From the IMG/VR virus record IMGVR_UViG_3300028626_000223, positions 1 through 24,282 of that record: a stretch of 24,282 nt of DNA. One strand, given 5' to 3'. The position numbers and the translations under genes are program-made. Of this stretch, positions 2,553 through 14,150 are shown one piece after another. The DNA is from a virus. The notes beneath the pieces are model-generated. The model made no database searches and was not told where the DNA came from. It was given only the letters and a program-made list of their open reading frames with translations. Position 1 is the stretch's first letter, and every line of letters starts with the position of its first letter.

Positions 2553-4294
2553 TAGTAACCGCCTATCTGATACTTTCTTTTTACCGTTGGGCGCTCTTCT
2601 GTTTTGTAATTTGATTCAAGAGCAAGAGCCCCACCGATAGAGATTAAATCGACGTCTTTACTGGTGCTGACGCTGTCTTTTCTTACTGCAGCCTGAAGTG
2701 CATACTCCCCGCTTTTGATTAGTTGCAAGACTTCTGGAGCAATGTTTCCAAACTCTACTGTCATGAGTTTGTTCTGTTCTCGTTTAATAGAGTAGATCAT
2801 TACGTCGTATGTTGACGCTGGTTCTATGTCCTTCGTCGCAGTTTGCAGCGTGAATCTTTTCCCTACTGTAATATCTTTGTCGAAAAAATCCGATGATTTG
2901 TAGGTAAAACTCCCACTCAATATTCCGTTCTGGATATTCGTGAGCACCCCCCAAGCAAGTTTATCGCACCCATCTTCACTGATGATTCCCTTTGCATGGA
3001 TAGTAACTTCAATCGACTTATACTGGGTGGCGGTAGATACCATATTTGGATAGTATGGCTGGATAACAGCCCCCCTCCAATGGGCATATGCGAGGGTATT
3101 CTCCTGACCTCTCCCCAGATACTCACGGGACTCCGGATTAACTGTAGCAAGCTTAATACTGGTTTCAGTAATTTCTTTAGCCTGAATGATTTCAGACCCA
3201 ATCTTGAAATATTTTGTTGCAGGAGAGATATTAGAAAGAATCCCCGTATCTAGCGCCTTAATTATTGGCATAGTTTGTGTGATTAAACACGGTTGGCCGT
3301 ATAGATGAGGGGTATCTCCAGAAGAGAACCATTTCTCACGGGTAATACCAGTCACCCCCCCGTTTGCATCTCCTAAAGAATACGTATTTTCATACCCTAT
3401 GAATTCATTATTGACCCGAAACGTATCGTTTACTCCCCATCCCACTACGTTTCTCATACTTTGCAACCAAATACAATCGGAGTCTCCTAAGTGGGTGAGA
3501 TACATATGTGGGTCTGATGGGGGGAGGATTTCCTCTTCTCCTAAAATGGCGTCATCGCAATCAAGATAAAAATATGCGTTCTTTATTGGCTCTTTATCTT
3601 GCGTTTCCATATCTATGAGGAAGGAGGCGGTCGTAGTATACCCAGAAATCTCTTTTTCAACCCCGATTACCGTTACAGAAGAGTATTGTTTATATAGCGA
3701 CCGGTCTAATTTGAGCCGGAATATATCTTTGTTCTCAACTAGAATAAGGGGGTCTTCAAGTGCGTCTATGATCCCGTCAGATACAATTATTTTTGCCCAC
3801 TGGTTTAAGTATGCGGTCGTCGCAGGTTCACACTCGTATCTCCAATTAAGCCCTGACATAGAGGCGATCGTGTTAAGATGAGTTAGTATCGATCCACTTC
3901 TGAATGCATACCGAATTAGCGGGTTTCGTGTTGCATTATATTCGAACCAGAACAACTCGCTGCCATCCGGATTCTTTGGGAGAAGGGCATAGATCAACTC
4001 ATTCGCTCTCATAATAGGCATCTCGTCTTGGTTGGTTACTACCGTGTCTCGAAGCAAACACAATATGGATTCCAGAGTAACCGATTCTATCCGAGATGAC
4101 ATCGACATGCTGGTTTCTTTTACAACCCCATATAATTTGACGGATTTGTCAACCAGCACCACACGTGTAGCACCTTCTGTGAATTTTCCCTCGTCACTAC
4201 TGCTAGCGACGACCCTATTGAATCTGAACGTGTTAACTCCGTTTAGCGACTCATACAAGGAACAGTTGAATGGGATGATCGGCTTTTCGGCCAT
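2552..4294 (-). CDS. 580-aa tail-tip hub (Tal/baseplate-hub-like) protein
   Basis: Position downstream of the TMP. The N- and C-terminal parts have a hub-like pattern (LNTIASMSGLNWRY, IFRLKLDRS, VTVIG, MIYSIKRE). It carries two inserted E[IF]I...R...H modules. Confidence 0.55.
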   Translation of the reverse strand: MAEKPIIPFNCSLYESLNGVNTFRFNRVVASSSDEGKFTEGATRVVLVDKSVKLYGVVKETSMSMSSRIESVTLESILCLLRDTVVTNQDEMPIMRANELIYALLPKNPDGSELFWFEYNATRNPLIRYAFRSGSILTHLNTIASMSGLNWRYECEPATTAYLNQWAKIIVSDGIIDALEDPLILVENKDIFRLKLDRSLYKQYSSVTVIGVEKEISGYTTTASFLIDMETQDKEPIKNAYFYLDCDDAILGEEEILPPSDPHMYLTHLGDSDCIWLQSMRNVVGWGVNDTFRVNNEFIGYENTYSLGDANGGVTGITREKWFSSGDTPHLYGQPCLITQTMPIIKALDTGILSNISPATKYFKIGSEIIQAKEITETSIKLATVNPESREYLGRGQENTLAYAHWRGAVIQPYYPNMVSTATQYKSIEVTIHAKGIISEDGCDKLAWGVLTNIQNGILSGSFTYKSSDFFDKDITVGKRFTLQTATKDIEPASTYDVMIYSIKREQNKLMTVEFGNIAPEVLQLIKSGEYALQAAVRKDSVSTSKDVDLISIGGALALESNYKTEERPTVKRKYQIGGY

Positions 4295-5358
4295 TATATC
4301 ACCTCGAATTTGCTCGATAGTTTGTATAGACTTTCGACGCGGGTTCTAAACTCTACTGTTTTTGGAGGAGATGCGTCGATTTGTGTGTTAAACCCAATTC
4401 CTATGTAGATGTTATATTTTGAAGTGAAATCGACATGAGGTTGCGCAATGTCATACTTACTTATAAACTCAACATGGGGGGAGATTATGCTGTAATTAGA
4501 TGTGAACGGAACGTCATAGTGGCGCGAAATGATGTTATATATTGACCCGAAATGCCTATAGACCGGGGGGACATAATATGAGACAATTACAACGCCAGAC
4601 CCCCCAGCATATGTCCATGAACCACCGTTTTTGTTCCTACATCCGCCTCCTCCACCAAGCCCATTTGTTCCCGGAGTCGGATCAGAATAATACGAAGAGT
4701 TTAACCACCACCCTCCTTGTCCACCTCCTCCAACGCCGCCATACCCTGTGTTTACCCCGGTATTGTAGTATTTTCCACCACCTCCACCAGCATATGCTGT
4801 AGAGACTCCGGTAATTGTAGAGTATTTTCCCGGGCCACCATATCCGCCACCAGTCCCCCCATGGACATCTGCATTTTCACCGGGGCCACCAGCACCACCG
4901 CCTCCACCAGAGCTTCTATCTGGGTAACTTCCATATACCCCGCCTCTATACCCCTGCCCAGAAACTCCAGACCCCGCAACACTTCCTCCACCGCCACCAG
5001 ATCCTCCATCGTTGCCCCCGCCTGCTCCTCCACCATATGCGACAAGGCCAAACGCTTCTGTGTTTGCTCCATTTTTGTGAGCCCCATCATAGATCCCACC
5101 GGCTCCTATTTTAATAGTGTGCGGGCCTGTAGTAACAGACAAGTTAAAGACTTCTACATACCCGCCTGCTCCTCCTCCACCGTCTCCATACCCCCCGCAA
5201 CCGCCTCCACCAACAAGCAACACCCATGCTTGAGTAACTCCTTCAGGGAACGACCATTCAACTGAATCCTGACCTCCTCCTGCACTAATGCTGGAGGTAA
5301 ATTTTGCAATACGCCTGCCATCAACCGGGTCTCTGGTTTCAGTTACAGTGACCGCCAT
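4294..5358 (-). CDS. Glycine-rich-domain tail/fibre protein with C-terminal F-x-[ST]-x-[YIV]-x-I-like repeats
   Basis: VLLVGGGGCGGYGDGGGGAGGY...IKIGAGG through GGSGVVIVSY is the glycine-rich domain common in phage tail proteins. Confidence 0.7.
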   Translation of the reverse strand: MAVTVTETRDPVDGRRIAKFTSSISAGGGQDSVEWSFPEGVTQAWVLLVGGGGCGGYGDGGGGAGGYVEVFNLSVTTGPHTIKIGAGGIYDGAHKNGANTEAFGLVAYGGGAGGGNDGGSGGGGGSVAGSGVSGQGYRGGVYGSYPDRSSGGGGGAGGPGENADVHGGTGGGYGGPGKYSTITGVSTAYAGGGGGKYYNTGVNTGYGGVGGGGQGGWWLNSSYYSDPTPGTNGLGGGGGCRNKNGGSWTYAGGSGVVIVSYYVPPVYRHFGSIYNIISRHYDVPFTSNYSIISPHVEFISKYDIAQPHVDFTSKYNIYIGIGFNTQIDASPPKTVEFRTRVESLYKLSSKFEVI

Positions 5359-6721: not shown

Positions 6722-7176
6722 GATTGTTTCTCGACGATTTGTAGTGAAAAACTCACGTTGATCGTATCTCCATGCCCCCCGGCACCAGAGACAGTCCACC
6801 GTTCAAGCAGAACGTAATAAGTCCGTTCACCCAATATCAGAGTGTAGGGTACATATGTGTCACTGTAATTCTCTTTTTTGAAGAATCCTTCTGCGTAATG
6901 GTAGGTGGATGAATCTCCAATACCATCGAGCCACGTGGTATTGATTGTTATGGTGTCTGACTCGATGAAGTTCAGATCAAACCCTATCGGTTCCTGATCC
7001 GGCACGGGGATTATAATTGGCGATTTGGACATCGTCCGGGTCCAGTCTGCAATCCCTGCATAACTGGGCCCGGTTGCCGTTTCCAGTGCCCGTTGTAGTT
7101 CCCCCCCTATAGTAGTCTGCCCGATATACAACCTACCTCCATCAACATTCTCAAGGTATACCTCTCCCCGTGCCAT
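6718..7176 (-). CDS. 152-aa distal tail protein (Dit-like), inferred from position
   Basis: First gene after the TMP (TGATG overlap); the size and terminal beta-strand INVSFSLQIVE fit the tube-fold Dit class. Confidence 0.55.
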   Translation of the reverse strand: MARGEVYLENVDGGRLYIGQTTIGGELQRALETATGPSYAGIADWTRTMSKSPIIIPVPDQEPIGFDLNFIESDTITINTTWLDGIGDSSTYHYAEGFFKKENYSDTYVPYTLILGERTYYVLLERWTVSGAGGHGDTINVSFSLQIVEKQS

Positions 7177-10100
7177 CAGATCACCAACCGTCTGCTATCT
7201 GCTACCATCATCTGTTTAAACTTCTCAAAGAGTATCCGGTCGTCTTCCCGTTGCACAACAAACGTGTTGTGATTCGTTATCGTGGTCTTGGTAGTATCAG
7301 TCCGGACATTTGAGTTTGTATTGACCCGCGCAGGTATAATCGCTTCCCCTGAATGCACATTCACGACCCCATCTGATAATATATCTCCACCAGATGCCAT
7401 TGATGGAATATTCAGTGCCCCCTTTGCACTATTGAAGAGCCCGCCAATTCCCGGCAGCCCAGACAGATACCTATCAATAATCTCCATAATGGCAGATGGC
7501 AGCCCTGCGAGGTATTCTCCAAGCGACGCAAATGCCCCGAGTATTGCTTCCCTAACGGTGTCTCCAGCCGCAGCAGCAGATTCCTGCCACGCCGTTACTG
7601 TTGCAATCACAGCGTCAACAACTCCCGTTACTGTCGCAACCACAGCAGATAACACATCTCCTGCCTTTGTAAGTGCATCCGATATCGCTCGTGTTGCGGT
7701 ATCAATTCCTCCAGTGACTGCAGCACCAACTACAGCCGGAGCACCTTGCAGATCGACTCCTGTGTTATATGCAGTGGCCGCAACTGATCCAAGGAACCCA
7801 TACTGGTTCGTAAGGTGCCCCCCTGCATTCGCCTGTTCTGGAGTGAGGTTCAGTCCTGACGCGAGTTTGTCAGCCTCTTCTTTCATTGCAAAGAGGTCTT
7901 TGAATCCAAGTATAATTGGGCCGAGGATTGCTCCTCCTGCAGCACCAACCGGCCCGCCTATCGAACTGCCAGTAACTGCACCTGCAGTTATATCATTTAC
8001 CAAGGATGCGGCAATCCCTCCCATGTCTTCCCCAAGAGGACCAGCGATTGCTTTACCGATTGTTGCACCATCCCGGATCATAGAATCTCTGGCAAAGTAT
8101 CCTGCTACTCCAGCAACCGGCCCGAGTTTCGGGAATCTCGCAAGCAGTTTTGCAAACGCAAATGCCCCTGCAGCTGTCATCCCTCCGGTTGCAAGAGCCG
8201 CCCCGGTGTCTCCTGTTCGCAGGTATTCGGCTCCGCCAGTAAACACCCCAAGACCGGCACTCCCAACTAAAGCTGCGGTCCCGCCCTTTCCAAGAAACTT
8301 GTCTCCGACCTCTGCGACTTTCTTTCCCGCATTTACAACGGTATCTATTACGCCCTTTGCCGCCTCGACCGGCTTTGGGATGAACGCCTTTATTGCCTCA
8401 ACAACTTCGCCAAACTTTGTCTTTATAAACTCCCATAATCCCCCCGCCTTTTCATTTATCCGTTCCCAGATGCCGGCCGCTTTTTCTTTTATCCATTCCC
8501 ACACCCCGCTTGCTTTCTCCTTGAGCCATTCGAACAAGGACCGGGCCCCTTCCTTTATTGCTTCCCATATTGATTTGAACAGGTCTTTGAGGATATCGAG
8601 CATCCCTTTCCCTTCAACTCCGGGAACCGTTGCGACTGGCATGGCGTGCAATATAGAATTCAGAACTGCCAGCCCGAGACCGAGCAACGCAATGATTCCA
8701 AATCCTTCTATAGATATTAAAGAAAGGAGTGTTCTCTGCGATTTGCCTACACTGATTGCAGTCTCAATCTGTGCCTGCTGTCCTTTGACGAAGATCCTGC
8801 CGAGTCCGTGCATCCCTCCTTTAATCGCACCGATGGCAATACCGACACCAGCAATAGGTGCCATGACTGCTCCAATCATCTTACTTGCTACACCAAGCCC
8901 GCCAACAATTGATTTGCCGATGTCAGATGAAAGGAACGAGCCAACTCCCTGTGCAATGGTAGTGATCCCGCCTTTGAAGATGTCACCCGCACCGCCAACA
9001 ATGCCTCCCATCCATGACCCGAAGTCTCCACCTGCACCCGCAACTCCTCCTTCAGCCCGGTGTTCAAACCTGCGGACAACTTCTTTCGGCACGATGAGTT
9101 CGCCGGGTTCAGTAAGAACAGGAACGCTGTCTCCTCCACCATATCCGGGGATCCTCATACCAAGTGCAGCCTTGTACTTTATTATCCTCTGCCCAGACGG
9201 TTGTGGGATTGCCCCGTCTTCTTCTTCTTCTCCCGCAGGGCGATTTACTCGAACCCCTTCAAGTCCAGATGGCGAATCTCCAAACGGCCCGAATATCGCC
9301 ATGGATGCTCTTTTTGATCTCCCCCATATCCTCGACAGTATTCCCGGTCCTTGTTCTGGAGGAGTGTAAGGAGTTCCATTCAGAGCGGCAGTAAGTTTCT
9401 CAAACGCTGCAGCAGCGGCTTCAACGTCCTTCTTCATCTTATAGATGCTGTAAAGTGCAGCGAAAACTGCAACTCCAACAAGTGCGAGCCCTGTGCCAAG
9501 TGCTATCAATTTGTGGCCTTTGAAGAAGTTCCCGAGCCATATGAATCCTCTTGTGATGAGTAAGAATGCGGGGAGAAGCGGGCGGATTATCATGTCAAGC
9601 ATGTATCCCCATCCTCTGCCAACAGCACCCATGCTTTTCTGATACACTTGAGATGTTGCAGTAAGTATCCTCAATACATGAGCAAATATCAACCCTCCGG
9701 TCACTGCATACCGGGTGCTGGAAATCAGCCGGTCAAACTGCATCCCGAGTTTCCCCCCAGACACTTTTGCTTCAGCAACCGGATCATATCGCGGTTCTTT
9801 TCCCGGCCCAAACGCTGGCTGGCCTTCTGCAATGAGATTGAGGGTTTCCTTTACGGTCGTTTTAAACCCGCCTGCGGCATTTAAAAACGCAGGACCGACC
9901 TCTGATCGTATCTCATCAGAAAGCACCTGTGCTGTGACATGGGCAATGCCCCTTGCAGGGTCCGCAACGTATTCCGGAATTGGTGATATTGTGCCGCCTT
10001 CGACATCCTGCTCCATCTTTGTCCCGGTCTTTAAGAACCGTGCTCCCCCCATGGCTTTGAACAGCGGGTTTGGTATGACGTGGAACCCGCTGCCTGCAGG

Positions 10101-13100
10101 GACAAGCATCTCCGGGCCCTCTTCTCCGACGACTGCAGTCTGCCCGGGCATAAGCGGGCCTCCAGACGCAAGATACTTGAATATGTTTGGGATTCTGGTC
10201 CCAGCGGGGACAATAGTTCCTGCTGCAGTTACCGGGTCGAACACCTCATAGGGGAACGCCGTAAGAGAGAAGGCTTTCAGAGCAGGGTGCTCCCGTGACA
10301 TGACTCCTTTCTTTGGCAGTGCAAGCCGGACATCAGGAGAAACTTTTGGAGAGGATAAGAAGTCCTTGATGTTCGCTGCCATCGGGATGAGCGGTTCTAA
10401 CGGGTTCTGTTCTCCCACTGGCATAAACCCCATCTTCAGATACGATGCAACCGTGTCTTTAAACGGTATTGCTTTCAGTTCAATATGGGTAAGTAGGTCC
10501 CCAACCGGCCCTTTCAGCGCCTTTGCAAGAGCCATGCCGATAAGAGTTGGTCCAAGCCCTTTCCCTCGCTCAAGTGCAGCGAGTTCGCCAACATACATGT
10601 TCCATCCGGACCCGCGGTCAGCAACACGTATCGGGAGAACGCTGTCGGTTAATGTTGGACGGTTGAACGATCCGATTGCCCCTGCGATGTTACTGGAGGT
10701 GTCGTAGGCAATCACCTTGTCCATTGGTTGCAGGAGCAGGTCTTTCGCAAGTGAGACAGATCGGTCAGCCACGAGGGAGTTGAGGTATGTGTATTCAGTC
10801 TTGTACTTCTTTCCGAGCGATGCGGCTTTCAATGCAGCGTCTGCTTCATAGGCGAATTCAAACGTCCCTCCTGCGAGTTTTCTCGGGAAAAGCGAAGAGA
10901 TGACATCAGACTGCCCTAGATCGTAGACCATGGCGTCAAATTGCTCGCGGTGATGTGAAATCCAGTCTTTTGAAAGCCCTTTTGTTAAGTATTTTAATTC
11001 AAGCCCTGATACCAGATCCGCCTTGATGGTCCTTGTTTTATAAAACGCATCGCGGACACCATCATATAAGTTTTCTTCTACGGTTTCGAGTGATCGAATG
11101 TCTGCGACCATCCCTTGCCCGCGAGACGAAATCAATTCAGCCTCGTGTGCGCTAATATACCCAAGACGCCCTTTCAACCGGTCTGTTATTTTGACCTTAA
11201 ATAAAAGTTCGTGGAATTCGCGAGATATTTGGGGCAACAGAGACAGGTATTGATATGATGGATCTATGCCTTGTATCACAGCGTCCCCTATTGTATACCT
11301 ATTCTTTGTGACGCTATACGTCATTCCCGGTGCCCTAAATAGTGTCGCCCCTTTTAATGCATCTACCAACCCCCCAGACGTTTTAGAGATGTGTTTATCG
11401 AACGCATCTATTTCTTTTATGAAGTCCGGGTTCGTTTGCCTACTTGTGCGATACGCCCCCCGCCCGCGTAAAAACGTGCGTAATTGCAGACTTGGTTTAT
11501 AATCCTCACTTGTTTTGTAGTCACCATACGGAGTGACGCCTTGGATCTCCTCTAGTGATTCTCCAACCGCTTTTGTGAATTGTTGGCCTATTGAGAATAG
11601 GGGGGCATTTAATGGCGCAAACTTATCATAAATCTCAGAACTCCATCTCAAAAACTTCTCTGAATCAACCTTGTATAAATGATCTCCGTAATCTAACGGG
11701 TGATCCACATAGTTGAAAAATGGAATTTTCAAAGCCTTGGAATATAATGACGGGGTTGACTTTTTGCTTATGGCATTACCAAGATCCCGCCACCCACTAG
11801 AGATAAACGCTTCATACGCCTCTATTGCTGCGTCTTCATTAGATCCAATAAGAAGATCATCAACTGTTCCACCAGCAAGCCGCCGAGGATTAATTATCCA
11901 CTCTCCGGGAGTGAGTTTGCCGAGGACCGAATCCTGATCCCCAGATCCCGGAACAATGCCTCCTTTGTTAAACCCGAGCAGCCGATCAATGATAGGTTTC
12001 CGAACACCGCCTTCAAGGTTCAGATACTTCTGCCAGTTGAGATCGCTCTGCTCACCAAGCACTTCTCCAAGGATCGGTGCAAGTTCATGGTTCAGGGCAT
12101 CTCCGATGATTTCTGCTATGGCTTTCTGCGGTGCTTCATCTTCAGCACTTTTCGGAACAGACCTGATGTCCTGAATGTATTTTTGCCGGACTAATCCGTT
12201 CTTGATCTCCAGCAGCGTTGTGTTGATTGTATCTAATTTTCCAGCGATACTGCTGACACCAGAGGTAGACTTTGCGCCGAACGACTCTTCGATCTGTTTC
12301 CCTATGGTCTTGAGTTTGCCACCGATGTTCTTCTGGATCTCTGCGGTGATGACATAGACCATCTCTTGTGATGCCAGTCTGACCCCATCAAGCATATCGG
12401 TGATCGACTGCTCAATGCCTGACATCCACATTGACTGCATTCCGATGAACTGATCGTATGCATCATCAAGGACTTTGATACGTTCGCGTGCAGACTTGAC
12501 GTAATCGGCTTCAGACTCGGTTGGCACCCGGCTTGCTCCACCAGATGCTCTGTGTTTAGATGGGCGTTTGTCTGGTTTTGATCTCGGGGTCGTTGTCGCT
12601 TCTCCCGTCTCGCCGGTTGCAGCCTTCTGTTTCTTTCTGAACTCTGCGACCTCTTCTGCCGTAAGTTGCTGTTTGCCCCCAATACCCTCCTGCTTTAATG
12701 CCGCTTTCTCGTTCTCAAGATCCTGCTGGGCTTTCTTCCAGAGGAACAATTTCTTCTGGTAATCTTCTTCTGCTGCATCGGCGAGCGATTGAGACACTGT
12801 AGTGTCCCCTGCGTCCATAGCATCGAAGAGAGCAGCTGCTTTCTTGTCAGCATCTTCCATCTCCTTCTGCAGCCGGGCAACGTCTGCTTCAAGTTTCTTT
12901 ATGGTTGCAGTGTGAAGAGACTGGGATTCAACAGCAGGAACGCCAGCAGCCTGTTTCTCTTTGACTGCTGCAACAACCTCTTCCTGAGTTACCTGCTTGA
13001 CTTCCTGCTTGACTTCCACCGTCACTTTCTGTTCAGGAGGTTTTCCGACCTCGACAACCTTGATCTTTGCCCGTTCTTTATGAAGAGCCTGCATCTCCTG

Positions 13101-13601
13101 AATCAACTTGTTCATCAGGGCTTTGTCGTCATCGGTGAGAGAATCGTTGCCGATCATCTCATGGATATGTTCCTGAATCTGGCCGAGTATTGCAGAACTT
13201 CCTTGCGACTTGGTTGCCTTGACGATCTTCAGAACCTTCTCAAAGAAGGCGTTATACATCTGGGCGTAATCAACGGCATAATAGTCCTGCCCCTTTCCAT
13301 ACTGGACTTTCACCAGCCCGGCAGACAGGGCTTTTGTCACCTTGCCTTTCCGAGATGACAGCAGGCGTTCTAGGCGGAGCAGTTCTCCATCATAATCCTT
13401 CTCAAAATTAGAGAGAGATCCTTCTATCTCAAGCAGGGCGTTGTTGAGAAACCCTTTTATCTGGTTCTCGCCAAGCCCGGAGAGTCCTTTTTCAACAAGT
13501 TGCCCGAGTTTCTTTGCACGGCTGGAGATCTGGTTGCTTGCAGTGGTCTTACCTATAGTACTCCGTGCCGTTACGTCTATCTCTGATGCGTTGTCTGTCA
13601 T
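7176..13601 (-). CDS. 2141-aa tape measure protein with embedded ADP-ribosyltransferase-like and GNAT cassettes (start revised to ATG 13601)
   Basis: Longest ORF, directly after the tail chaperone. It has Ala/Gly-rich helical regions, several hydrophobic segments, 11-residue Trp repeats and four AxGG...GE-hydrophobic-P modules typical of TMPs. Confidence 0.92.
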   Translation of the reverse strand: MTDNASEIDVTARSTIGKTTASNQISSRAKKLGQLVEKGLSGLGENQIKGFLNNALLEIEGSLSNFEKDYDGELLRLERLLSSRKGKVTKALSAGLVKVQYGKGQDYYAVDYAQMYNAFFEKVLKIVKATKSQGSSAILGQIQEHIHEMIGNDSLTDDDKALMNKLIQEMQALHKERAKIKVVEVGKPPEQKVTVEVKQEVKQVTQEEVVAAVKEKQAAGVPAVESQSLHTATIKKLEADVARLQKEMEDADKKAAALFDAMDAGDTTVSQSLADAAEEDYQKKLFLWKKAQQDLENEKAALKQEGIGGKQQLTAEEVAEFRKKQKAATGETGEATTTPRSKPDKRPSKHRASGGASRVPTESEADYVKSARERIKVLDDAYDQFIGMQSMWMSGIEQSITDMLDGVRLASQEMVYVITAEIQKNIGGKLKTIGKQIEESFGAKSTSGVSSIAGKLDTINTTLLEIKNGLVRQKYIQDIRSVPKSAEDEAPQKAIAEIIGDALNHELAPILGEVLGEQSDLNWQKYLNLEGGVRKPIIDRLLGFNKGGIVPGSGDQDSVLGKLTPGEWIINPRRLAGGTVDDLLIGSNEDAAIEAYEAFISSGWRDLGNAISKKSTPSLYSKALKIPFFNYVDHPLDYGDHLYKVDSEKFLRWSSEIYDKFAPLNAPLFSIGQQFTKAVGESLEEIQGVTPYGDYKTSEDYKPSLQLRTFLRGRGAYRTSRQTNPDFIKEIDAFDKHISKTSGGLVDALKGATLFRAPGMTYSVTKNRYTIGDAVIQGIDPSYQYLSLLPQISREFHELLFKVKITDRLKGRLGYISAHEAELISSRGQGMVADIRSLETVEENLYDGVRDAFYKTRTIKADLVSGLELKYLTKGLSKDWISHHREQFDAMVYDLGQSDVISSLFPRKLAGGTFEFAYEADAALKAASLGKKYKTEYTYLNSLVADRSVSLAKDLLLQPMDKVIAYDTSSNIAGAIGSFNRPTLTDSVLPIRVADRGSGWNMYVGELAALERGKGLGPTLIGMALAKALKGPVGDLLTHIELKAIPFKDTVASYLKMGFMPVGEQNPLEPLIPMAANIKDFLSSPKVSPDVRLALPKKGVMSREHPALKAFSLTAFPYEVFDPVTAAGTIVPAGTRIPNIFKYLASGGPLMPGQTAVVGEEGPEMLVPAGSGFHVIPNPLFKAMGGARFLKTGTKMEQDVEGGTISPIPEYVADPARGIAHVTAQVLSDEIRSEVGPAFLNAAGGFKTTVKETLNLIAEGQPAFGPGKEPRYDPVAEAKVSGGKLGMQFDRLISSTRYAVTGGLIFAHVLRILTATSQVYQKSMGAVGRGWGYMLDMIIRPLLPAFLLITRGFIWLGNFFKGHKLIALGTGLALVGVAVFAALYSIYKMKKDVEAAAAAFEKLTAALNGTPYTPPEQGPGILSRIWGRSKRASMAIFGPFGDSPSGLEGVRVNRPAGEEEEDGAIPQPSGQRIIKYKAALGMRIPGYGGGDSVPVLTEPGELIVPKEVVRRFEHRAEGGVAGAGGDFGSWMGGIVGGAGDIFKGGITTIAQGVGSFLSSDIGKSIVGGLGVASKMIGAVMAPIAGVGIAIGAIKGGMHGLGRIFVKGQQAQIETAISVGKSQRTLLSLISIEGFGIIALLGLGLAVLNSILHAMPVATVPGVEGKGMLDILKDLFKSIWEAIKEGARSLFEWLKEKASGVWEWIKEKAAGIWERINEKAGGLWEFIKTKFGEVVEAIKAFIPKPVEAAKGVIDTVVNAGKKVAEVGDKFLGKGGTAALVGSAGLGVFTGGAEYLRTGDTGAALATGGMTAAGAFAFAKLLARFPKLGPVAGVAGYFARDSMIRDGATIGKAIAGPLGEDMGGIAASLVNDITAGAVTGSSIGGPVGAAGGAILGPIILGFKDLFAMKEEADKLASGLNLTPEQANAGGHLTNQYGFLGSVAATAYNTGVDLQGAPAVVGAAVTGGIDTATRAISDALTKAGDVLSAVVATVTGVVDAVIATVTAWQESAAAAGDTVREAILGAFASLGEYLAGLPSAIMEIIDRYLSGLPGIGGLFNSAKGALNIPSMASGGDILSDGVVNVHSGEAIIPARVNTNSNVRTDTTKTTITNHNTFVVQREDDRILFEKFKQMMVADSRRLVI
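8385..8570 (-). repeat. 33-nt / 11-aa periodic TMP repeats (WEAIKEGARSL FEWLKEKASGV WEWIKEKAAGI WERINEKAGGL WEFIKTKFGEV)
   Basis: Aromatic residue every 11 aa, the classic amphipathic TMP repeat. Confidence 0.85.
10179..10862 (-). other. GNAT-fold acetyltransferase cassette inside the TMP
   Basis: MYVGELAALERGKGLGPTL (acetyl-CoA loop R-G-x-G-x-G, 10551-10571), then IELKA and VASYLKMGF (FY-x-K-x-GF-type motif, 10425-10442). Confidence 0.8.
10863..10886 (-). repeat. Cassette-boundary motif PRKLAGGT
   Basis: Near-identical peptide to PRRLAGGT at 11865-11888, encoded with different synonymous codons. Confidence 0.85.
10887..11864 (-). other. ADP-ribosyltransferase-like (VIP2/Alt, R-S-E clade) cassette inside the TMP
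   Basis: Ordered motifs DY...LRTFLRG, IKEIDAFD, TLFRA (Arg 11334-11336), GDAV...DPSYQYLSL, ISREF, LLFKVKI, GYISAHEAELISSRG (E-x-E 11136-11144). The STS motif is degenerate (YLS). Confidence 0.68.
11865..11888 (-). repeat. Cassette-boundary motif PRRLAGGT
   Basis: Directly follows the module FNKGGIVPGSGDQDSVLGKLTPGEWIIN and precedes the ART-like cassette. Confidence 0.85.
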
Positions 13602-14150
13602 AAGGATCTCTCTTGTGCCCAACGTTCTCGGGCTGCAGGCAGGGCATGTTCAAAGAACAACCGGTCCATATCAGTCAGCCGACCTAACCACGACGGGGGC
13701 CATCCAAGCAACCGGCACAGTTCGATGTCGTACTGACCTTCAGGCGCCTTTGCGAAAGTTTGCAGTCTGCTTCTCTTTGTTGCCGACCAGCGTATACATC
13801 ATCTCGAGCACTTCAAAGGCAATACCGTCTTCAGTGTCAATCAGTTCCCATGTCTTTGGAACGTTCCATGGAGACTCTTTGCACATGCCGGCAAGCACTT
13901 CATACGTGCTCATCTCCAGCGGTTCGAGACTGTCGCCCTGATTCTGCATCTTTTCCATTACCCGTCGCAGCGGTTTTGGAATGGTCGGCCGGATCTTGAT
14001 CGGGATCTCGTAGACGGTGAGCGTGAGAAACTGGTTCTCTACGTTGTGCAAAAGTTGGCGCACTTCGTCAAAAGAGGTTTGCTCTGCATCTACGTAAGTG
14101 GACAGTTCGTCCTGAAGTCTGGCGTATCTCTCCTCGTTTGTTTCTGCCAT
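13598..14150 (-). CDS. Predicted 183-aa frameshift product (GT-type tail assembly chaperone), +1 shift at TTT-CGC
   Basis: The +1 frame reads FAKAPEGQYDIELCRLLGWPPSWLGRLTDMDRLFFEHALPAARERWAQERSL*. It has no upstream start of its own, fills the whole chaperone-TMP gap, and its stop overlaps the TMP ATG (ATGA). Confidence 0.75.
13740..14150 (-). CDS. 136-aa tail assembly chaperone (gpG-like)
   Basis: Acidic helical protein between the tube and TMP genes. Confidence 0.8.
   Translation of the reverse strand: MAETNEERYARLQDELSTYVDAEQTSFDEVRQLLHNVENQFLTLTVYEIPIKIRPTIPKPLRRVMEKMQNQGDSLEPLEMSTYEVLAGMCKESPWNVPKTWELIDTEDGIAFEVLEMMYTLVGNKEKQTANFRKGA
13752..13757 (-). promoter_or_regulatory. Putative +1 ribosomal frameshift site TTT_CGC
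   Basis: In-frame UUU followed by C allows tRNA-Phe to re-pair on UUC; it lies just upstream of the gpG-like stop. Confidence 0.68.

Follow-up and report, generated by a model that had tools for sequence, protein, structure and literature searches.

A divergent GNAT-type acyltransferase cassette within the tape measure protein of a probably archaeal tailed virus

Introduction

We analyzed a 24,282-bp viral contig from IMG/VR (record IMGVR_UViG_3300028626_000223, with an estimated completeness of about 49%; hereafter "the window"), in which the gene for the tape measure protein (TMP) carries a segment resembling acetyltransferases in its middle. This segment, a discrete cassette, is very likely a divergent member of the GNAT acyl-CoA N-acyltransferase superfamily, i.e., related to it by homology. 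Judged from its residues, it keeps the predicted cofactor-binding half of the fold together with a Glu/Tyr pair at the catalytic positions of protein acetyltransferases of the RimI/Naa type. On balance, and by a narrow judgment, we favor the reading that it is a self-contained GNAT cassette in the middle of the TMP of a siphovirus-type, probably archaeal virus, and that it would be delivered to modify the host.

Results

The TMP contains a cassette with GNAT motifs A and B

The segment at 10179-10862 was assigned to the minus strand because the plus-strand translation has stops throughout; on the minus strand it is an open frame of 228 amino acids (aa), which corresponds to aa 921-1148 of a single 2148-aa open reading frame (ORF, 7176-13622). 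The earlier note on this DNA had quoted three strings from the region as evidence for a GNAT acetyltransferase inside a TMP. The minus-strand translation contains all three in the order expected of a GNAT (YVGELAALERGKGLGPTLI at aa 1011-1029, HIELKA at aa 1046-1051 and YLKMGF at aa 1061-1066), and PHROG matches confirm that they lie within a TMP.

The product of the 2148-aa ORF is identified as a tape measure protein by PHROG families of that kind, which cover aa 1290-2136 (phrog_1272 is the best, at E 1e-14, followed by phrog_58 at E 4.7e-10 and others), and this homology is accompanied by the glycine-rich, hydrophobic body typical of such proteins, in which a Kyte-Doolittle scan marks three membrane-span-like segments (aa 1369-1396, 1572-1601 and 1631-1664). 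An ATG seven codons into the ORF would give a 2141-aa form (P0005). The cluster represented by P0005 is 100% identical across the cassette region on 11 contigs from independent assemblies; the fusion is therefore real and not an assembly chimera.

Motif A of the GNAT superfamily (beta4, a Q/R-x-x-G-x-G/A loop and alpha3) is present in the stretch YVGELAAL-E-RGKGLG-PTLIGMALAKAL (aa 1011-1038), where the AlphaFold2 (AF2) model of the cassette piece places a helix straight after the loop. Motif B (beta5 followed by alpha4, which bears the "..Y.k.GF" signature) is present in THIELKA ... TVASYLKMGF, which the model folds into a strand (piece residues 130-137) and a helix (residues 141-149). The Arg and both Gly of the motif A loop are invariant in all ten homologs, including P0004, the TMP of a distant relative with only about 35% identity (loop RGQGIG), and H1046, E1048 and Y1061 (the Tyr of YLKMGF) are likewise invariant across the ten. 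The GNAT cofactor-binding half (beta4-alpha3-beta5-alpha4-beta6) is modeled at pLDDT (predicted local distance difference test) values of 65-88, and fold searches of the model find almost nothing but GNATs, with modest individual scores. In RimI-type enzymes, the residues corresponding to E1048 and Y1061 act as general base and general acid, roles that the two may also have here. Catalytic competence of the cassette seems fairly likely.

Selection is strongest on the same residues. Across close relatives, the ratio of nonsynonymous to synonymous substitution rates (dN/dS) is 0.02-0.04 for the core (aa 1014-1075), the lowest of any TMP segment; it is 0.13-0.25 for the GNAT cassette as a whole and 0.06-0.39 for other TMP segments.

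The two ends of the cassette differ from this core. The N-terminal half (aa 921-1023) is variable between the window domain and P0004 in BLASTP comparison and was modeled with pLDDT values below 50. In GNATs this half is the arm beta1-alpha1-alpha2-beta2-beta3, which finishes the sheet and usually binds the acceptor, and its variability fits the usually variable character of that arm. A greedy hhalign alignment puts VIAYDT..IAGAIGSF on the beta2-beta3 hairpin, at low confidence only. At the other end, the extension of about 45 aa (aa 1107-1153) is conserved and has no GNAT counterpart: the BLASTP alignment with P0004 runs on to piece residue 234, i.e., through the extension, which is the best-modeled part of the piece (pLDDT 70-88), and alignments to GNATs stop at about residue 192.

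Profile, structure and language-model comparisons place the cassette among GNATs

Relatives of the domain are few. When 1.84 billion representatives were searched exhaustively by phmmer, only two clusters were returned, both of them TMPs, one 92% identical and the other P0004 (about 35%, E 1e-8); by BLASTP, the window and P0004 domains match with E 7e-19. No free-standing homolog was found among these representatives or in a near-length profile search, which returned one TMP fragment (P0013). An IMG/VR pattern scan for more relatives and a tblastn search of GenBank phages with the domain returned none; the GTDB genomes contained one 1.2-kb fragment (L006) and the JGI metagenomes four near-identical copies. 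Because so few relatives were found, the cassette alignment is shallow, amounting to effectively two independent sequences, and the AF2 model is mediocre.

None of PF00583, PF13508 and PF13673 (Acetyltransf_1, _7 and _10) reaches its gathering threshold on the window domain, which is why the domain is filed at superfamily level only; a six-frame PF00583 search of the contig gave no match. The P0004 domain comes closer, with E 5e-4 against Acetyltransf_10 (20.5 bits, cut-off 23.6) and E 0.011 against Acetyltransf_7 (16.5 bits, cut-off 27). On the window domain, sub-threshold matches fall on the motif A/B stretch that is shared with P0004 (aa 1008-1072): phrog_1249 "acetyltransferase" at E 0.05, the NCBIfam AAC(6') model at E 0.12 and, as the best PDB profile match, acetyltransferase 2g3a at E 0.53. 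A phmmer search of PDB with the window domain returned nothing meaningful.

For a profile-profile comparison, a GNAT reference profile was built from 29 PF13673-positive GNAT ORFs from 26 bacterial genomes and compared by hhalign with the cassette alignment (A2). The match had a probability of 83.3%, E 8.6e-6 and a score of 42.4 over 52 columns; as controls, the best of 100 column-shuffled alignments scored 21.2 (2%) and the reversed alignment 17.0. The register agrees with the motif assignments, since R1019-G1024 falls on RRqGIG, E1048 on the Glu of "LEVR" and Y1061 on the Tyr of "fY.klGF", and the whole motif B stretch is in register with the GNAT consensus "LEVR..N.aA..fY.klGF". Together with the transitive chain through P0004, this comparison gives statistically supported homology to genuine GNATs.

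The AF2 model of the cassette piece has a mean pLDDT of 56, with residues 1-109 below 50 and residues 110-236 at 65-88. Among the matches listed by Foldseek against PDB, only GNAT-superfamily or uncharacterized proteins occur (best probability 0.96, E 0.03). VIA-align wide, which is independent of Foldseek, is led by Naa60 (Z 6.5), FeeM (6.3), TofI (6.2) and Naa10/50; LasI has Z 5.4, and AcrVA5 (6iuf, 5.0) and TacT3 (6g96, 4.9) rank lower. A shape search of the ESM Atlas gave GNAT-clan families in eight of ten rows. ESM language-model features ranked GNAT clusters first (0.93), and the ten best family-bearing matches all share the family or clan.

A chance resemblance is unlikely because methods that are individually weak agree both in the family and in the register. 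The GNAT assignment made in the earlier note is supported by indirect routes (P0004, hhalign with its controls, the fold searches, the ESM features and the weak profile matches) and fails by the direct one, as the Pfam Acetyltransf search that the note had proposed found no match. For structure prediction, which the note had also proposed, the fold searches return GNATs almost exclusively, from a model with moderate confidence in its C-terminal half only.

GNAT is the constant member of an exchangeable cassette array

In a pattern scan, the motif GG-x(n)-G-x-(V/L)-x-x-GE-x-(I/V)-P occurred four times in the TMP, beginning at aa 554, 1154, 1495 and 2078 (Table 1). The last of these, at aa 2078-2097, is the C-terminal GG..G.vH.GE.v motif of tape measure proteins such as lambda gpH. 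Lambda gpH has the motif GG-x(n)-G-x-V-H-x-GE-x-V once, at aa 736-760 (GGFTGTGGKYEPAGIVHRGEFVFTK), and no enzyme cassette, whereas the window TMP has four copies, one of them near the C terminus. Lambda gpH is processed to gpH* by a cut close to its C terminus. Three of the four copies in the window bracket the cargo region; the extra copies could be cleavage, docking or recombination points. Motif copy 2 bounds the GNAT cassette on one side and a junction peptide R(R/K)LAGGT on the other.

Table 1. Features of the TMP gene and its cassettes. Coordinates are positions in the window; aa numbers refer to the 2148-aa TMP.
Feature	Coordinates	Strand	Remarks
TMP gene, 2148 aa	7176..13622	-	one uninterrupted frame; TTG start
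Motif copy 1 GGIVPGSGDQDSVLGKLTPGEWIINP, aa 554-579	11886..11963	-	terminates the charged, helical N-terminal region
Junction peptide RRLAGGT, aa 580-586	11865..11885	-	leads straight into the GNAT cassette in relatives without cassette A
Cassette A, aa 587-913, 327 aa	10884..11864	-	window-specific extra module directly upstream of GNAT
Junction peptide RKLAGGT, aa 914-920	10863..10883	-	equivalent RRLASGT precedes the GNAT cassette in P0004
GNAT-fold domain, aa 921-1106	10305..10862	-	fold searches align model residues ~2-192 to GNATs; ESM features 0.93
Conserved acyl-CoA-binding core (predicted), aa 1008-1072: beta4, motif A loop, alpha3, beta5, alpha4	10407..10601	-	hhalign, dN/dS, shared with P0004
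Motif A pyrophosphate-binding loop R-G-K-G-L-G (predicted), aa 1019-1024	10551..10568	-	fits Q/R-x-x-G-x-G/A
beta5 His-Ile-Glu, aa 1046-1048; E1048 candidate general base	10479..10487	-	His and Glu invariant
Motif B YLKMGF, aa 1061-1066; Y1061 candidate general acid	10425..10442	-	invariant in homologs
C-terminal extension of cassette, aa 1107-1153	10164..10304	-	kept in P0004; without assigned fold
Motif copy 2 GGPLMPGQTAVVGEEGPEMLVP, aa 1154-1175	10098..10163	-	closes the GNAT cassette; kept in P0004 as GGPLRLGQSAIVGEEGPEMIVP
Motif copy 3, aa 1495-1512	9087-9140	-	within the hydrophobic body
Hydrophobic, glycine-rich TMP body	8631..9518	-	Kyte-Doolittle and motif scans, PHROG tape-measure matches
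Motif copy 4 GGDILSDGVVNVHSGEAIIP, aa 2078-2097	7332..7391	-	position of the single copy in ordinary TMPs such as lambda gpH

The order of cassettes changes between relatives. The window has cassette A followed by GNAT; P0009 has GNAT followed by A', a copy of cassette A with 37% identity; seven close relatives (P0003 and six others) lack cassette A and have GNAT alone; and P0004 has an HD-type module, GNAT and an unassigned module. Compared in this way, the relatives gain, lose and rearrange cassettes, and GNAT is the one that is always present. The GC content of cassette A is 42-47%, that of GNAT 52-54% and that of the rest of the gene 50-55%. A recent-insertion signal for GNAT was accordingly rejected, as its GC content matches the gene and only cassette A deviates; the lower GC content suggests that cassette A is a later arrival.

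The companions of GNAT are harder to assign. Cassette A has no Pfam, NCBIfam or PDB match and no near-length homologs, and its AF2 model has a pLDDT of 31; its ESM features point to unnamed viral clusters and to a cluster that is 49% LPD38. Three of its conserved motifs (TL[FI]R, S..P..S.EF and YIS.HE.E) look like those of ADP-ribosyltransferases (ART). That identity was considered and found no support from families, PDB or the low-confidence fold model, and no claim is made for it. P0004 is a 2157-aa TMP encoded at L002:2911-9384, with three cassettes in a row. The first is an HD-type phosphohydrolase-like module (PF01966, E 2.9e-4, 21.5 bits, cut-off 22; HDIG, E 0.016), the second is GNAT (RGQGIG ... 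YLKMGF), with the counterpart of window TMP aa ~915-1153 at L002:4927-5715, and the third, of 240 aa with an HNHP...SIPD motif, has no matches; a JAB/MPN reading of this third cassette found no support.

The TMPs are 1831 aa (P0003), 2148 aa (P0001) and 2286 aa (P0009) long, so that near-identical viruses differ by 300-450 cargo residues. As TMP length sets tail length, either the tails of these relatives vary or the ruler does not count the cargo.

The TMP gene is also strongly mosaic in its substitution pattern. Between segments of the same virus pair (the window compared with L003, L004 or L005), dS ranges from 0 to more than 2. Against L005, dS is 0 at aa 1900-2148 and exceeds 1.5 in other segments; in the TMP of L004, the C-terminal 850 aa are nearly unrelated (dN 0.4-1.0), yet the GNAT core is identical. 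These segment-to-segment contrasts in dS and dN indicate that recombination within the gene has been frequent.

Gene content points to an archaeal host

The TMP gene belongs to a run of tail and head genes, among which are those for a tail-completion-like protein, an XkdF-type protease and a tail fiber. Downstream of it, a 354-aa protein encoded at 4294-5358 on the minus strand matches Pfam Gly_rich_2 (E 1e-13) and phrog_2295 (E 4e-30), and is probably a distal tail or baseplate component. An ERCC4-HhH nuclease (PF02732, E 2.2e-13) is encoded beside the tail genes at 298-975 on the plus strand. In the syntenic relatives L003-L005, a full MCM with OB, P-loop and lid (PF00493, E 3e-83) lies two genes further on. 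A gene set with ERCC4-HhH and MCM is characteristic of archaeal viruses; with the ERCC4-HhH gene in the window and the full MCM in its relatives, we consider an archaeal host likely.

Two TMP fragments occur in bins of metagenome-assembled genomes that carry conflicting labels: P0013 is assigned to a Methanoregulaceae archaeon and L006 to a Candidatus Omnitrophota bacterium. Both are binned contigs of about 1 kb, neither label is reliable for the host, and at least one of the two placements is a binning artifact. The Methanoregulaceae label of P0013 fits the archaeal gene content.

Discussion

The reading that we favor entails a sequence of events at infection. The TMP would be loaded in the tail lumen and expelled on infection, and its hydrophobic C-terminal body would enter the host membrane. 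The cassette region would then reach the cytoplasm, either still joined to the rest of the TMP or cut free close to the flanking motifs, and it is in the cytoplasm that a GNAT must act, because it needs acyl-CoA. There the domain would draw on the acetyl-CoA of the host, or on a different short acyl-CoA, and modify a macromolecule of the host (a protein amine being the likeliest) ahead of all viral gene expression. Possible targets named in the earlier note are Cas or other defense proteins, archaeal chromatin proteins and tRNA. We infer injection, catalysis and target; for delivery, the argument is the TMP context and the analogy with Thermus phage P23-45 discussed below. Delivery and early action in the host may occur, although we attach slightly more doubt than belief to them. 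A bolder scheme, which we think less likely than not, is that an archaeal (probably methanogen) tailed virus uses its TMP as a modular injected polyprotein, in which a constant GNAT and optional modules such as cassette A or an HD hydrolase are fenced by the motif copies as processing and recombination points, and that the GNAT acetylates a chromatin, defense, transcription or translation protein at entry.

Several observations weigh against a delivered GNAT. In the direct family tests, the window domain draws no match from any Pfam acetyltransferase model, even with E values of up to 10 allowed, no Pfam, NCBIfam or PHROG acetyltransferase model is significant on it, and even the homolog P0004 stays below the Pfam gathering score. 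The fold scores lie in the range of chance matches (Foldseek E >=0.03, Z <=6.5, TM <=0.47), and the alignment behind the model holds effectively two independent sequences. The N-terminal arm, with pLDDT values below 50 and no detectable similarity between the window and P0004, leaves a complete GNAT fold putative. As for delivery, carriage of a folded domain of about 25 kDa in the tail lumen, its arrival in the cytoplasm and its release would each have to occur as we suppose, and Pfam and PHROG searches revealed no peptidase domain in the TMP.

The negative family tests, the weakness of each single-method score and the mean pLDDT of 56 are what could be said for a chance resemblance, in which an ordinary, fast-evolving segment of a TMP merely looks like a GNAT. 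We give this very little credence: independent methods arrive at the same superfamily in the same register, the hhalign score is twice that of the best of 100 shuffles and no part of the gene is under tighter constraint than this stretch. A GNAT-derived fold that has lost catalysis is harder to dismiss, if still improbable. Such a domain could be a spacer, a plug or a binding module, for CoA or a nucleotide or for docking to a host or tail protein, and this would suit the extreme divergence from every curated GNAT model, the unmodeled and unconserved acceptor arm and the conserved C-terminal extension without GNAT counterpart; the TMP context alone imposes structural selection. However, the strongest constraint, with the lowest dN/dS, is on the R-x-x-G-x-G loop and the Glu/Tyr pair, and a spacer would not be expected to keep such residues across 35% identity.

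If the enzyme is active, it might work at another time and place. It could act late in the producing cell, on the TMP itself, on tail or virion proteins or on host proteins, and be a mere passenger in the virion. Only the interior of a cell offers acetyl-CoA, and it is in a cytoplasm, late in infection, that the TMP is synthesized; the residues of catalytic type and the strong purifying selection suit this as well as they suit injection, and Pfam and PHROGs identify no cleavage enzyme or release signal in the TMP. Against it, a late-acting enzyme needs no fusion to the ruler protein, yet the domain is found inside TMPs only, both among the 1.84 billion representatives and in the near-length profile search, and companion cassettes such as the HD module of P0004 match the published logic of virion-delivered polyvalent proteins; we therefore give late action a small share of the probability. 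The chemistry might also differ. Were the cassette from the long-chain acyl branch (FeeM, N-acyl-homoserine lactone synthase or Acetyltransf_5 type), it could transfer a large acyl group onto, for example, a membrane or envelope component by the TMP channel. The widest coverage of the model is indeed by FeeM (Z 6.3, 134 residues aligned), TofI (Z 6.2) and LasI (Z 5.4); the FeeM/Acetyltransf_5 rows of the Atlas search have template modeling (TM) scores of 0.45-0.46 over 144-150 aligned residues, compared with 0.38-0.39 over about 122 for Acetyltransf_1; and the domain, at about 190 aa, exceeds minimal GNATs. But the extra aligned residues fall where the model has pLDDT values under 50, the sequence signals are all of the acetyl-CoA type (Acetyltransf_10, Acetyltransf_7, AAC(6') and phrog_1249) and the canonical CoA pyrophosphate loop is intact, which leaves a long-chain substrate a slim prospect.

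Returning to a delivered GNAT, enzymes that travel with the virion have been described in other settings. GNAT domains are a known component of the polyvalent proteins of phages and conjugative elements, which are taken to enter the host along with the DNA (Iyer, Burroughs, Anand, de Souza, Aravind 2017, PMC5512222). That study distinguishes two polyvalent GNAT families, both of the RimI-like clade and one typically adjoining an ART domain, and reports repeated independent accretion of domains; tape measure proteins are not mentioned in it, the carriers being head- or portal-associated or delivered by type IV secretion systems, and polyvalent proteins are reported to be scarce in archaea (PMC5512222). 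The window TMP resembles these proteins in having a GNAT within a long polypeptide among other exchangeable, putatively effector-type domains, and its Glu and Tyr positions fit the RimI-like type. The cassettes are exchangeable, with a fold assigned only for GNAT (in the window) and HD (in P0004, just under the cut-off). Unlike polyvalent proteins, the window TMP has no processing metallopeptidase detected by Pfam or PHROGs (a built-in peptidase is frequent there, not universal), and its cassettes are fenced by repeats of a TMP motif. Unlike the two polyvalent GNAT families, the TMP family has no detectable free-standing members, and the virus looks archaeal.

The closest precedent for the carrier is gp96 of Thermus phage P23-45, a 5002-aa TMP with an N-terminal two-barrel virion RNA polymerase whose activity has been shown and which transcribes the pre-early genes (PMC10770324). 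Both proteins hold a module of a cytoplasm-acting enzyme type within a TMP polypeptide, which works at the very onset of infection in P23-45 and would do so in the virus of the window, and P23-45 provides experimental precedent for such cargo. In P23-45, however, the cargo is N-terminal and the host bacterial, whereas the cargo of the window is an internal GNAT-fold cassette between repeated motifs and is known from sequence.

Other modules embedded in TMPs include cell-wall hydrolase motifs, such as the Rpf-like or peptidase motifs of mycobacteriophage TMPs. These, too, are non-ruler modules in a ruler protein, but their site of action is the envelope and they require no cofactor from the cytoplasm. 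Acetylation as a weapon is likewise familiar: AcrVA5 acetylates Cas12a, and TacT proteins are acetyltransferase toxins. The Rac protein of phiKMV acetylates the alpha subunit of RNA polymerase (cited in PMC7824862). These enzymes share the superfamily of the cassette and show it deployed in conflicts, between virus and host or through toxins, where acetylation inactivates a macromolecule of the host. Unlike the cassette, AcrVA5, Rac and TacT are free-standing, and the phage ones are made after infection and are not virion cargo. No specific kinship or common target with AcrVA5 or TacT3 is implied, because their fold scores are no better than those of many GNATs.

A literature search turned up no description of a GNAT within a TMP. 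The principle is already published, in injected polyvalent proteins with GNATs and in a TMP-fused RNA polymerase, and this tempers the importance of the finding; the surprise expressed in the earlier note at a cytoplasm-acting acetyltransferase within a TMP was overstated in light of both (PMC5512222; PMC10770324). If the cassette is active and delivered, the ruler protein of a non-contractile tail would double as a carrier of ready-made host-modifying enzymes, in an apparently archaeal virus. It would represent a compact enzyme family so far seen inside tape measures only, and would extend the delivery of pre-made effectors to the archaeal virosphere, where polyvalent proteins are reported to be scarce. 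It would also give a concrete, testable starting point for asking how tailed viruses of archaea seize or disarm the host cell during the first seconds of infection.

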